Translations under genes and position numbers: made by a program
The notes under the pieces: generated by a model
The model's input: only the letters and a program-made list of their open reading frames with translations
Told to the model about the DNA's origin: nothing
Database searches by the model: none
Shown: in pieces, positions 13,476 to 16,069 of the stretch
Layout of the letters: the number at the start of each line of letters is the position of its first letter
Position numbering within the stretch: the stretch's first letter is position 1
From: Escherichia phage VEc74
Reading direction: 5' to 3' (one strand)
DNA: 64,000 bases
Sequence record: MT932213.1

Positions 13476-13632
13476 GTGATTTCCTTTTGCCTACTAATGG
13501 ACCGTCGGGAATTTTGTTTTCCTGGATATACTTCTCATTTTCTTCCATCATTTTACTACCAATTTTAAGAAGCAAATCCATTGCTTCATTTGCTTTAGCT
13601 TTAGCCTCTTCTAACGTCATATCTTTGTTCAT
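13468..13632 (-). CDS. small hypothetical protein
   Basis: 54-aa ORF with ATGA overlap at both ends; hand-translated. Confidence 0.35.
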
Positions 13633-13832
13633 GATTTATCACCATAGATGTCTCTCATCAATTTAAGCGCTGAGCGTTCTAATTTCTTTTCTTTCTCAGC
13701 ACTAATCATTGATTTCATCCATTCTTCCGATTCATTCTGCATTTCTTTATTTGCTTGTTCAACCCAACCATCATCAATATACATTGAGTTTGGTCTACTG
13801 AACCATTCAAGCATCTTCTTCAGAACTTTCAT
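13629..13832 (-). CDS. hypothetical protein
   Basis: 67-aa ORF. Confidence 0.4.
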
Positions 13833-14304
13833 TTGTTTTACCTAAAACAATAGTAGGAGCATCGTCAAATTCATGAATTTTGAGTAAATTTGGATTTAAA
13901 TTATTCCATACATAATAAATAAAGTATGATAAAGCATCTTCACTCGCAATTATAAATTTATTTCCTTTATCTATTTTCCAGTCATATACTGAATCGTACG
14001 AATAAAAAGATAAAGGGTTATCATTATATTGTTCTGCGCTAACATTAATGTATTCGGATTTAGTAAATGCTTCAATTGCTCTAAACGGACTATTTGACAC
14101 AGTTTCAATAATTCCGATCTTTTTAAGTTTTATTTCAGCATCTTCTGGAACTGGCATTGAAACGAAATTTTCTACGAGATACATAGGGTTACGATAACCC
14201 TTATCAATCATTACGGCTACAGTAATTGGAACATCTTTAGCAAACGACATACTATTACTGCTAATATACATTTCAAACAAAATCGCTTCCATAATTTTCC
14301 TCAA
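13807..14304 (-). CDS. hypothetical protein
   Basis: 165-aa ORF. Confidence 0.45.
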
Positions 14305-14642
14305 TCACAAGATGTAGATGAACAACTAGAATCACAAGAACTTCCACATGAATCGCCCGTCCATACATGAACAGGAACATTAGTATCATATGAATCAGAA
14401 CTAGACTGTGTATTCTGTGTATTAGATGATGTAGTAGGTGTTGACCAGCGCCAAGGATTTTTATAATATTCTTGGGCTTCTTCATAAGTCATAGTAACTG
14501 CTTCTACTGTTCCATCTCCCATATAAACATATTCAACTACAGTTAAAGGAAGGTAATCGTTTGAAATAGGAACTACACCTTCCCCAGGAGTTGTAGAGAA
14601 AAAATCCGTAAAGAAACTTTTAAACCAATTAAAGATAAACAT
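14301..14642 (-). CDS. hypothetical protein with a Cys/Ser-rich C-terminal tail
   Basis: 113-aa ORF ending [18 protein letters not shown]. Confidence 0.45.
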
Positions 14643-14854
14643 TACAAAAAGCCTCTTTGAAATTCGACTCTTTGAAATCCACCCCAGTCAGTGTATCGCA
14701 TTTCAGCATTGAACTCGACTGAACCATCTGCATGCATCATGAATGAATGCGTGACGATATCACAATCCCAGCTTTTCATACCCCATTTATCAGAGATAGC
14801 TTTATCAAGAACCTTCTGGAGGTCTTCATTTGGTTTAATCCAACGATTTAACAT
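14642..14854 (-). CDS. hypothetical protein
   Basis: 70-aa ORF downstream of a hairpin-plus-promoter unit. Confidence 0.4.
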   Translation of the reverse strand: MLNRWIKPNEDLQKVLDKAISDKWGMKSWDCDIVTHSFMMHADGSVEFNAEMRYTDWGGFQRVEFQRGFL

Positions 14855-14880: not shown

Positions 14881-14910
14881 ATTATACCATACTCATTTTG
14901 GAAAGTAAAC
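14881..14910 (-). promoter_or_regulatory. T4-type early promoter (part of a PeSL-like unit)
   Basis: GTTTAC, 17 bp, TGGTATAAT. Confidence 0.55.
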
Positions 14911-14924
14911 CGTTTAAATGAAAA

Positions 14925-14946
14925 AAGGACTCCCGAAGGAGTCCTT
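14925..14946 (-). terminator. rho-independent terminator after soc
   Basis: GGACUCC-UUCG-GGAGUCC hairpin followed by UUUUUU on the minus strand. Confidence 0.65.
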
Positions 14947-14950
14947 AAAT

Positions 14951-15196
14951 TTATTCACCAGTTACTTTCCACAAATCTTCATTTGCAGCAATCCATGCAG
15001 CACGTTGATTTTCTTCATATACTGTAGAATATGCTGCTTTTTCTGAAGGGAATATCTGGTAATGAGCACCAGAAATTTTGTGAACGTCAGAATAAAGAGG
15101 GAAAGCTACAGAAATTTCCTTTCCTTCAATTTTCTTATTTCCATCTAATTTCTGCTCAAATGTTTTGATATTAACATAACCGCGAGTACTAGCCAT
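14951..15196 (-). CDS. soc: small outer capsid protein Soc
   Basis: 81-aa ORF between the mod region and gene 56, with a late promoter and terminator. Confidence 0.75.
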   Translation of the reverse strand: MASTRGYVNIKTFEQKLDGNKKIEGKEISVAFPLYSDVHKISGAHYQIFPSEKAAYSTVYEENQRAAWIAANEDLWKVTGE

Positions 15197-15226
15197 GTAA
15201 TTCTCCTTTTATTTAAATTACATGAT

Positions 15227-15234
15227 TATTTATA
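15227..15234 (-). promoter_or_regulatory. late promoter (TATAAATA)
   Basis: exact TATAAATA on the minus strand about 30 nt upstream of the soc ATG. Confidence 0.6.
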
Positions 15235-15278
15235 ATAATTCTCACGGCTTTTAAGTCGTCGTTTAAATAAACGAGCTA

Positions 15279-15797
15279 TTAATAACCTCGGTCTTGACGT
15301 GCGAAATTTTCAGCATTTTTCAGGTAATAAAGTTTAAAGATTTCTTCAGCCGTAAGACCAAGACCTTGGAACATGTTCAGAACAAAATGGAGAATATCAA
15401 TCATTTCAAATTTAATTTCCAACTGGTCTTGTGGAGACAAATCAGTAATCAAAGTTTCACGGCGTTCACCATGCTGCGACTTCCAAGGTTTCCATACAGC
15501 AGATGCATCTTTTTCGCCGTTGCTCATACCACCAAGAGAAGTCAAAAGTTCGCGGAATTCATCATCAATATAATCTTTCTGATTGCGCAGCCAATCAACA
15601 ACTTCACCTGCAGTAGCCAAATCATCAGGATGACGGTTATATTCAGGTTTATCTTTAGCTAAACGAACCTGCAAAGATTTCTGCATATCAAGCATAACTT
15701 GCAGCGGGTCTTTTTCATCACCGAGAATATCCCAGTATTCATTTTGAGCTTTATCAGCGCCTTCGATCAATTGTGAACATTCATTAAAGTATGCCAT
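15279..15797 (-). CDS. 56: dCTPase/dCDPase gp56 (MazG-like)
   Basis: ORF starting MAYFNE at an internal ATG with an AAGGA RBS; the tracked N-terminal extension is hydrophobic and likely spurious. Confidence 0.7.
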   Translation of the reverse strand: MAYFNECSQLIEGADKAQNEYWDILGDEKDPLQVMLDMQKSLQVRLAKDKPEYNRHPDDLATAGEVVDWLRNQKDYIDDEFRELLTSLGGMSNGEKDASAVWKPWKSQHGERRETLITDLSPQDQLEIKFEMIDILHFVLNMFQGLGLTAEEIFKLYYLKNAENFARQDRGY

Positions 15798-15868
15798 TAT
15801 TTTTCCTTTCAATTCATGGATTAGTAGATTAATTATACAATAAATATATAAAGCAATAAGGAGGACAT

Positions 15869-16069
15869 ATGGTACAAAAATTAATGGCACTTGTTAATGC
15901 CATCAAAGGTAATAAAAAGCGTATAGCTTTTACTATTTCTGCTATGGTAGGAATTTTACTCTGGAACTTTATTTTATCACCTGTTGCAATTGCGCATGGT
16001 ATTAATATTCCAGTAGTTACTCTTGATACATTCGTAGATTTAGCATTTGCTTTAGTTGGGTTAATTTAA
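15869..16069 (+). CDS. small hydrophobic protein encoded on the opposite strand
   Basis: 66-aa ORF with two predicted TM segments, AAGGAGG SD before the ATG, no minus-strand ORF in the 56-61 intergenic interval. Confidence 0.35.
   Translation: MVQKLMALVNAIKGNKKRIAFTISAMVGILLWNFILSPVAIAHGINIPVVTLDTFVDLAFALVGLI

Follow-up and report, generated by a model that had tools for sequence, protein, structure and literature searches.

A conserved Cys...Cys-Asp C-terminal tail in Mrh.1 (DUF7206), a small accessory protein of T4-like phages, and its possible thiol-carboxylate chemistry

The gene described here lies in a stretch of 64,000 nucleotides from Escherichia phage VEc74 (sequence record MT932213.1), referred to below as the window. 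It is an intact open reading frame (ORF) on the minus strand, at 14301..14642, which starts with ATG at 14642, stops with TGA at 14301-14303 and codes for 113 residues, in agreement with the coordinates and length given by a first-pass annotation made from the sequence. The window DNA is 98-99% identical in nucleotides to that of about 500 T4-type phage genomes, and the protein is 97-100% identical in amino acids to Mrh.1 of T4-type phages. The matching gene of the T4 reference annotation is mrh.1 (T4p027, NP_049642, 'Mrh.1 hypothetical protein', UniProt P20706), and the sole difference between the two proteins is at residue 95, Thr for Ala. The Pfam family PF23836 (DUF7206) is matched with 103.1 bits against a cut-off of 25.6, protein residues 3-113 corresponding to model positions 1-107, and PHROG 2031 (phrog_2031) with E = 3.7e-33. 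The hallmarks of DUF7206 are all present: the N-terminal M-x-x-[WF]-[LI]-K motif, the EYVYMGDG motif and the C-terminal ...C...C-D. The gene also occupies the orthologous position, downstream of soc and mrh.2 and upstream of mrh, srh and the Mod ADP-ribosyltransferase genes (modA.x, modB), and no material difference from T4 was found. The ORF is, with near certainty, the phage T4 early accessory gene mrh.1. Both gene and family are already catalogued, DUF7206 and PHROG 2031 being entries of unknown function.

The remarkable part of the protein is its C-terminus. The last 20 residues contain four cysteines, at positions 99, 103, 107 and 112 (CX3CX3CX4C), and these are the only cysteines of the protein. 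The first-pass annotation had quoted the letters of this tail correctly and had counted five cysteines; the count is four, and two in most relatives. With the Cys frequency of the long ORFs of the window (1.35%), the chance of finding at least four cysteines in a given 15-residue tail is P = 4e-5, or 0.003 over 72 long ORFs. Ser, Asp, Cys, Gly and Tyr make up 17 of the 20 residues, the highest content of any C-terminus among the 340 window ORFs of at least 40 residues (the runner-up has 11), and no other of these ORFs ends in Cys-Asp. For this region of the genome the tail is unusual, as had been claimed.

Relatives were gathered from IMG/VR loci combined with a profile search, which yielded 117 clusters at 90% identity, every one with PF23836. 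A single-sequence search recovered T4-type copies only, and the loci and profile extended the family beyond them. Named sources include phages JS98, IME08, CJ20, Edwardsiella PEi20, Serratia PS2 and Muldoon, Enterobacter ENC9 and Cronobacter VP8. With a VR26-type query, tblastn matched at least 775 phage records, from phages of Escherichia, Shigella, Klebsiella, Yersinia, Salmonella, Citrobacter, Enterobacter and Serratia. DUF7206 was found only in T4-like (Tevenvirinae-type, 165-178 kb) phages of Enterobacterales.

All 114 cluster representatives whose tails were compared have Cys at position -2, counted from the C-terminus (114/114). At position -1, 112 have Asp and 2 have Asn, and position -3 holds Ser, Gly or Thr. 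Conservation in related phages, which the first-pass annotation had proposed to check, is therefore complete for the Cys-Asp/Asn end. A second Cys lies 4-10 residues upstream of the penultimate one, with modes of 6 and 8, and is followed by Asp in 100 of the representatives. Ser accounts for 43% of the tails, Asp for 14%, Gly for 14%, Cys for 8% and Tyr for 8%. His is rare (0.4%), Lys or Arg occurs once among the 2850 residues that make up the last 25 positions, and outside the tail Cys represents 0.1% of residues. The consensus reads ...S-S-Y-D-S-G-(x)-S-C-D-S-[S/G]n-S-C-D-COOH. Measured against it, the T4 group with its four cysteines is an outlier. Where it has C103-D-S, relatives have a near-invariant Y-D-S (TGT GAT TCT vs TAT GAT TCA), and its C99 aligns with a position occupied by Ser or Tyr. 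No more than one other element of the family is as well conserved as the tail. The rule that the tail follows, Cys...Cys-Asp at the extreme C-terminus, appears undescribed in the searchable literature, where mrh.1 was found in supplementary tables and neither it nor DUF7206 was discussed in a main text.

Codon usage indicates that selection acts on the protein. Over the last 13 codons, VR26-type phages and JS98 differ by 7 synonymous and 0 non-synonymous changes (proportions of changed sites pS = 0.84, pN = 0). The serine codons of the tail alternate between the TCN and AGY families, and Cys and Asp codons vary too. Since synonymous sites are near saturation while the residues are unchanged, the tail is under strong purifying selection; the coding signal, whose absence from relatives the first-pass annotation had named as fatal to its claim, is present. 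In T4-type phages, the Shine-Dalgarno sequence of mrh (GAGG) overlaps the mrh.1 stop codon (TGT GAT TGA GGAAAATTATG), and a ribosome-binding site was considered as the cause of the conserved S-C-D-stop. It was ruled out by comparing the codons and the downstream sequences: in other genera the sequence after the stop is unlike that of T4 (TAA-ATGAGA..., TAATGAAACC..., TAACTGTTT..., TAATTTTAAA...), yet S-C-D-stop is retained, so that conservation acts on the protein. From its strong conservation throughout the T4-like phages of enterobacteria, the tail is judged to be functional.

Some copies of the gene depart from this pattern. The 164-residue protein of Escherichia phage 235Ecol030PP (P0003, 17 member sequences) carries a 51-residue in-frame insertion and keeps the four-Cys tail. 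It is a mosaic, in which a T4-type N-terminal half and a four-Cys tail enclose a middle segment of VR26/JS98 type (MEEIIRQPEKAGNVG...IDTAPIITATAVSS), and it provides evidence of inter-genus recombination within mrh.1 with the tail staying in frame. Several other copies from genomes or metagenomes (L007:1501-1587, P0005, P0006, P0008, P0009) are frameshifted or truncated after residues 15-60, which is consistent with a dispensable gene, or may reflect assembly errors. In some T4-type phages, such as Shigella phage Sf23 (L015:1147-1479) and the source of P0004, mrh.1 starts with GTG in a TAGTG overlap with mrh.2. The N-terminal truncation of the Sf23 gene is only apparent, since with the GTG start it is full length, and the 70-residue product beginning at the internal Met41 in some annotations results from a misassigned start codon.

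Four further proteins came up in a search with a profile of the last 44 residues, with E values of 0.4-6.4 that are not significant. One of them (P0124, L025:397-612, 71 residues) begins with MTFFKNLFRKPG, ends with ...SCDSGGGGSCD and does not contain the EYVYMGDG hairpin. It is probably a real, reduced member of the Mrh.1 family, because its N-terminal motif was outside the tail-only query, and it would suggest that helix and tail form the functional core. The others were a protein of 77 residues (P0122, L023:151-384) in which a CxC...CPxC zinc ribbon is joined to ...SSSYDSSSSCDSSSSSGCD, a protein of 60 residues (P0125, L021:1859-2041) with a basic segment and the end ...SYDSGSSCTDTSSSFSSGCD, on a contig that resembles actinobacteriophages, and an FmdB-family zinc ribbon with a Ser/Gly/Cys tail (P0123, E = 1.6). 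The first three are small metagenomic proteins with Mrh.1-like ...SYDSGSSC...CD-COOH ends on other N-terminal parts, which in P0124 is an Mrh.1-like helix. These matches hint that the Mrh.1 tail could be a portable module, a claim that the statistics do not allow.

The remainder of the protein consists of an N-terminal helix, a small core and a linker (Table 1). AlphaFold2 (AF2), run with an alignment of 114 sequences, gave the T4-type protein a low overall confidence, with a mean predicted local distance difference test score (pLDDT) of 59.5. The two strands of the hairpin, 34-40 and 46-52, reach 76-86 and are followed by a helix at 53-66. Scores fall below 50 at residues 69-86 and 88-109, and the means of 10-residue blocks are 40-48 from residue 71 to the C-terminus. 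The linker of relatives contains the helical segment LNSKKLKEHL and a short patch of hydrophobic residues, IVVTAAAV. The model of a VR26-type member (P0015) contains a helix at 3-8 and the hairpin at 28-42; its middle segment forms two weak helices, and its tail has a pLDDT of ~45-51, with values below 50 at 88-98, 101-103 and 105-110. Neither model has secondary structure in its tail, and a disulfide-stabilised folded domain around the cysteines was not found in either, the tail scoring below 50 nearly throughout. A Foldseek search of the PDB with the AF2 model returned nothing at E < 1, the model being of low confidence beyond residues 34-66. Sequence and profile searches of the PDB gave one meaningless match (E = 4.1), and PADLOC gave none.

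Table 1. Mrh.1, its parts and neighbouring elements in the window
Feature	Position	Strand	Basis or remark
mrh.1 ORF (113 residues + stop), ortholog of T4p027 / NP_049642	14301..14642	-	PF23836 (DUF7206), PHROG 2031
N-terminal amphipathic helix, residues 1-15	14598..14642	-	AF2 helix 3-15, hydrophobic moment, motif
Folded core, residues 34-66	14445..14543	-	beta-hairpin 34-40/46-52 and short helix; sole confidently folded part
Near-invariant EYVYMGDG, residues 37-44	14511..14534	-	within the hairpin; invariant alignment columns
Linker, residues 67-93	14364..14444	-	Ser/Thr/Asn/Gln-rich, predicted disordered; length and sequence differ among genera
Tail, residues 94-113	14304..14363	-	C107, C112 and D113 invariant family-wide; C99 and C103 specific to the T4 group
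mrh.2 (70 residues), upstream gene	14642..14854	-	stop overlaps mrh.1 start by one base (TAATG)
mrh (Pfam T4_MRH), downstream gene	13807..14292	-	Shine-Dalgarno GAGG over mrh.1 stop
Promoter-like TTTACT-17-TATAAT (sigma70 type)	14881..14909	-	10/12, with TG; consensus match only
Intrinsic-terminator-like hairpin after soc	14925..14946	-	separates soc from the mrh.2-mrh.1-mrh early unit

The first-pass annotation had described a hydrophobic N-terminus. The segment is indeed hydrophobic and aromatic, but it is only 15 residues long and broken by K8 and D13. Export or membrane insertion was assessed by the Kyte-Doolittle mean over 19 residues, with a threshold of about 1.6. The window protein reaches 0.84 at best and none of 113 relatives exceeds 1.09, and by this measure neither a signal peptide nor a transmembrane segment was found in any family member. 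For want of both, Mrh.1 is predicted to be cytoplasmic, possibly peripheral on a membrane. The family consensus at the N-terminus is M-[IF]-x-[WF]-[LI]-K-x-[LF]-F, then Pro, with a hydrophobic moment of 0.41-0.63. It resembles the membrane-targeting sequence of E. coli MinD, KGFLKRLFGG (PMC5471200): a short amphipathic helix (residues 3-15 and 3-8 in the two AF2 models) with an aromatic-L-K-x-L-F core (WLKNLF vs FLKRLF in MinD) and a hydrophobic face flanked by Lys/Arg. The Mrh.1 helix is N-terminal whereas that of MinD is C-terminal, and in T4-type phages it has a 4-residue insertion and is more aromatic. By sequence logic, the N-terminus might act as a MinD-type tether. A related motif, W-L-K-x-[WLF]-[LF]-x(2-3)-P-G, is common to the Mrh.1 N-terminus and to the product of srh (13629..13832, minus strand), a postulated sigma32 decoy. 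The motif also occurs at L008:1840-2034 and L010:1848-2048; in VR26-type phages Srh starts with MRITSWLKDWLVTPG and Mrh.1 with MINWLKNLFKTKPG. The 15 columns of this motif are all that a profile-profile comparison aligns, with P = 0.0012 and a probability of 19.5%; this is too little to claim homology of Srh and Mrh.1. The two neighbouring early genes could share a motif for docking or membrane binding, or the likeness could be due to chance.

Upstream of mrh.1 lies mrh.2, which has no Pfam family and belongs to PHROG 1873. Because its stop overlaps the mrh.1 start, the two genes are probably translationally coupled. A homolog of mrh.2 directly precedes mrh.1 in the T4, Sf23, RB14, VR26-type and JS98 loci and is absent at Serratia phage PS2; the two products may act together. 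In T4, mrh.2 and soc are found upstream and mrh, srh, modA.4-.2 and modB downstream. Across the loci read, mrh.1 is accompanied by 56, soc, mrh.2, mrh, srh, modA.x, Mod_ADP_RT, Y01A and dda. In every one it sits in the early host-takeover block, with gene 56/soc on one side and the Mod ADP-ribosyltransferase gene(s) and dda on the other. It is usually flanked by an mrh.2 homolog before and a T4_MRH-family gene or srh after, while in Serratia phages PS2 and Muldoon a Mod-type ADP-ribosyltransferase gene follows directly. The strong terminator-like hairpin after soc (AAGGACTCC-TTCG-GGAGTCCTT, then a T run) is followed within 20 nucleotides by the promoter-like site, of extended -10 type and near consensus, at which the mrh.2-mrh.1-mrh unit begins. 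The early expression of the gene presumed by the first-pass annotation is supported by this sigma70-like promoter and by RNA-seq of T4, in which the mrh.1 transcript is classed as early (PMC9697503, Table S2). At 14951..15890 (minus strand), gene 56 (dCTPase) is directly followed by soc, and the SegF homing-endonuclease gene, which separates the two in T4 (NC_000866), is absent; the middle part of gene 56 diverges from that of T4. The window phage is a T4 relative with a segF-less 56-soc junction.

What the tail might do can be approached from its chemistry. The strict C-terminal position implies that the free terminal carboxylate would participate. Invariant cysteines in a disordered segment, the interchange of Cys and Tyr, the Asp after each Cys and the need for a free C-terminus together point to thiolate and carboxylate chemistry, whose simplest form would be chelation of a metal ion or ligation of a partner's metal centre. 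The tail is tentatively viewed as a tethered thiol-carboxylate end that would bind a metal ion or the metal site of a partner, and metal binding is the best available chemical reading of its composition. According to this model, the folded N-terminal part would anchor Mrh.1, probably peripherally on the inner membrane by way of the MinD-like helix, or else on a partner protein. The tail, being flexible, would then present a chelating end in which two thiolates from Cys are combined with the side chains of the neighbouring Asp residues and with the carboxylate of the free C-terminus. A metal ion of soft or borderline character (Zn, Fe, Cu or Ni) would be bound by this end, or the end would coordinate the metal centre of a protein from host or phage. 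In the T4 lineage, the change of two upstream Tyr/Ser positions to Cys would have strengthened the site, giving four thiols, and relatives with two cysteines would need Tyr/Asp ligands, or dimerisation, for a complete site.

Several observations weigh against metal binding by the tail. Most members have two cysteines and no His, so that a monomer lacks the ligands for a classical tetrahedral site, and the Cys-Cys spacing is variable (4-10 residues) with no CxxC. Ser/Asp-rich acidic phage tails can serve protein docking or nucleic-acid mimicry. AF2 yields no structure for the tail, and no characterised metal-binding family was matched in Foldseek searches against the PDB, in NCBIfam or in sequence and profile searches of the PDB. 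Genetic and proteomic data on T4 fall on both sides. By CRISPRi-ART, mrh.1 was classed 'Semi-fit', with a fitness of 0.79 against a threshold of 0.7 and a Kolmogorov-Smirnov P = 0.069, a signal below significance (PMC11879866). The authors count it as one of five Semi-fit T4 genes whose function is purely unknown, and mrh.2, mrh, srh and soc were 'Not fit', a contrast in favour of the metal reading (PMC11879866). By HIDEN-SEQ transposon mutagenesis, mrh.1 was 'Non-essential', with 31/31 sites hit, and its differential fitness had a log2 fold change of -0.16 with q = 1; the counterpart beside mrh in Bas37 (bas37_0138) did not change significantly (bioRxiv 10.1101/2025.11.20.689424). In time-resolved omics of T4, the transcript was classed early and the protein was 'NA', i.e. 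undetected (PMC9697503, Table S2). The non-detection is a weak argument, because the only basic residues of Mrh.1 are K8, K61 and R65 and its tryptic peptides are thus 8, 53, 4 and 48 residues long. Overall, mrh.1 is a dispensable accessory gene that makes at most a modest contribution to fitness under laboratory conditions.

Among the other explanations, the one that survives best is a tethered short linear docking motif or decoy, in which the acidic Ser/Gly/Tyr stretch and Cys-Asp-COOH would enter a pocket of a host or phage partner and recruit or block that partner without any metal. It is possible, though doubtful. A conserved anchor domain, a linker of variable length and a conserved extreme C-terminus form a layout typical of tethered peptide ligands, and the acidic tails of SSB, T7 gp2.5 and T4 gp32 are known to insert into pockets of partner proteins. 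The invariant terminal position would suggest recognition of a free carboxylate, and the neighbours mrh, srh, modA and modB are host-takeover genes acting on host proteins. On the other hand, invariant cysteines are unusual in disordered docking motifs unless thiol chemistry is involved, Cys and Tyr interchange at two positions, and no candidate partner is known. This Tyr/Cys interchange is better accounted for by ligand or redox chemistry than by a purely acidic mimic.

Redox chemistry itself is an unlikely function. The tail would in that case be a dithiol 'swinging arm', or a decoy substrate for thioredoxin or glutaredoxin, that shuttles or diverts reducing equivalents or senses thiol stress at an early stage of infection. 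An acidic, disordered C-terminus in which a flexible Ser/Gly loop of varying length connects two invariant cysteines recalls class Ia ribonucleotide reductase R1, whose flexible acidic C-terminal tail carries a Cys pair. T4-like phages also encode redoxins of their own (nrdC and nrdH are listed for T4 in PMC9697503, Table S2). However, the flanking Asp residues raise the thiol pKa and disfavor reactivity, Mrh.1 contains no enzyme domain that the arm could serve, and no positional or phyletic tie to nrd genes was seen, mrh.1 standing beside mrh and mod genes in all loci read.

There is little to recommend covalent modification of the tail, either as the core of a ribosomally synthesised and post-translationally modified peptide or as another target (thioether, thiazole/oxazole, ADP-ribosylation, glycosylation). 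A C-terminus rich in Ser, Thr and Cys is reminiscent of lanthipeptide or thiazole/oxazole cores, and residues 95-109 have a weak NCBIfam match (E = 0.034) to the FxLD lanthipeptide precursor model (TIGR04363). At 14.1 bits, this match is far under the curated cut-off of 30; the FxLD leader motif is absent and no dehydratase, cyclase, YcaO or radical-SAM gene was found in the loci read, hence membership in that family was rejected. Mod ADP-ribosyltransferase genes lie just downstream in every locus, but the T4 Mod and Alt enzymes are arginine-specific and the tail has no Arg.

A narrower version of the metal reading, drawn by analogy, is a long shot: Cys-Asp-COOH would be a genetically encoded thiol-carboxylate 'warhead' on a flexible tether, held at the inner membrane by the MinD-like helix, and would plug a host metalloenzyme at its catalytic metal. 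As a target, FtsH would be the most attractive, a membrane-bound zinc protease that degrades sigma32, because mrh.1 sits with mrh and srh, the T4 genes linked to sigma32. Analogues of such a device are the cysteine switch of pro-metalloproteases and thiol drugs such as captopril and, by its target, the CIII protein of phage lambda.

The secreted, disulfide-rich peptide evoked by the first-pass annotation is scarcely tenable. The hydrophobic T4-type N-terminus and the even number of cysteines in the T4-type tail would suit it, but no member reaches the hydrophobicity threshold, relatives begin with M-I-K-F-I-K-N-L-F-S-P, a 9-residue amphipathic helix with a central Lys and not an n-h-c signal, and the tail is predicted to be disordered. 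Weakest of all is a tail that is functionless low complexity or reflects a DNA- or RNA-level constraint such as the translation-initiation region of the downstream gene, for which the T4-type Shine-Dalgarno overlap speaks, and which the near-saturated synonymous sites with invariant amino acids, conservation in 114/114 and the retention of S-C-D-stop before entirely different downstream sequences effectively refute.

T4 is the reference phage, yet a function is known for only about half of its early genes. For one of the others, present in at least 775 sequenced T4-like phages of enterobacteria and with a borderline fitness signal in a genome-wide knock-down screen, a sharply conserved and chemically suggestive motif is now defined, Cys...Cys-Asp-COOH on a disordered acidic tether, which makes mrh.1 directly testable. 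If the tail binds or blocks a metal site, it would represent a new phage route to interfere with metal or protease homeostasis of the host. Should it plug a metalloenzyme in the manner of a warhead, a new class of phage-encoded metalloprotease inhibitor would follow, and the similar modules carried by small phage proteins without relation to it (P0122, P0125) would be the mark of a portable effector tail. If it is an ordinary docking motif, the gain is an improved annotation of DUF7206.

Compared with known systems, Mrh.1 is not a member of the secreted signal-peptide, lanthipeptide-precursor, metallothionein-like or FmdB families, because at least one tested defining feature of each is missing from it. 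FxLD lanthipeptide precursors resemble it by their Ser/Thr/Cys-rich C-terminus and differ by the score, the leader and the modifying enzymes discussed above. The FmdB zinc ribbons (PF09723 / TIGR02605 'CxxC_CxxC_SSSS') are likewise small and combine a short N-terminal module with a degenerate Ser/Gly/Cys-rich tail. Mrh.1 has no Cys outside the tail, hence no double-CxxC ribbon, and no Pfam match to PF09723; FmdB tails do not end in Cys-Asp, and the resemblance is compositional, the P0123 match at E = 1.6 being not significant. The R1 tail has in common with that of Mrh.1 a disordered acidic character and two near-terminal cysteines a few residues apart. It serves the active site of its own enzyme, whereas Mrh.1 has no catalytic domain and its spacing is variable. 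Metallothionein-like clusters (CxC, CxxC, CC or His runs) were not found in the tail, which displays CX3CX3CX4C in T4-type phages and a single CX4-10C elsewhere. Unstructured metal-binding tails, such as the Cys/His/Asp tails of SlyD/HypB type, and thiol-carboxylate chelators such as phytochelatin have in common with Mrh.1 a flexible acidic terminus with repeated thiol-plus-carboxylate units. In contrast to them, Mrh.1 lacks His as well as CxxC and CC clusters, and mostly has two cysteines; the strict C-terminal register is a property of Mrh.1 and not of the known metal tails, with which there is no sequence or structure match. Phytochelatin is (gamma-Glu-Cys)n-Gly, and its PC2 form offers two thiolates and three carboxylates: the two Cys-Asp units and the terminal carboxylate of Mrh.1 constitute the same donor set.

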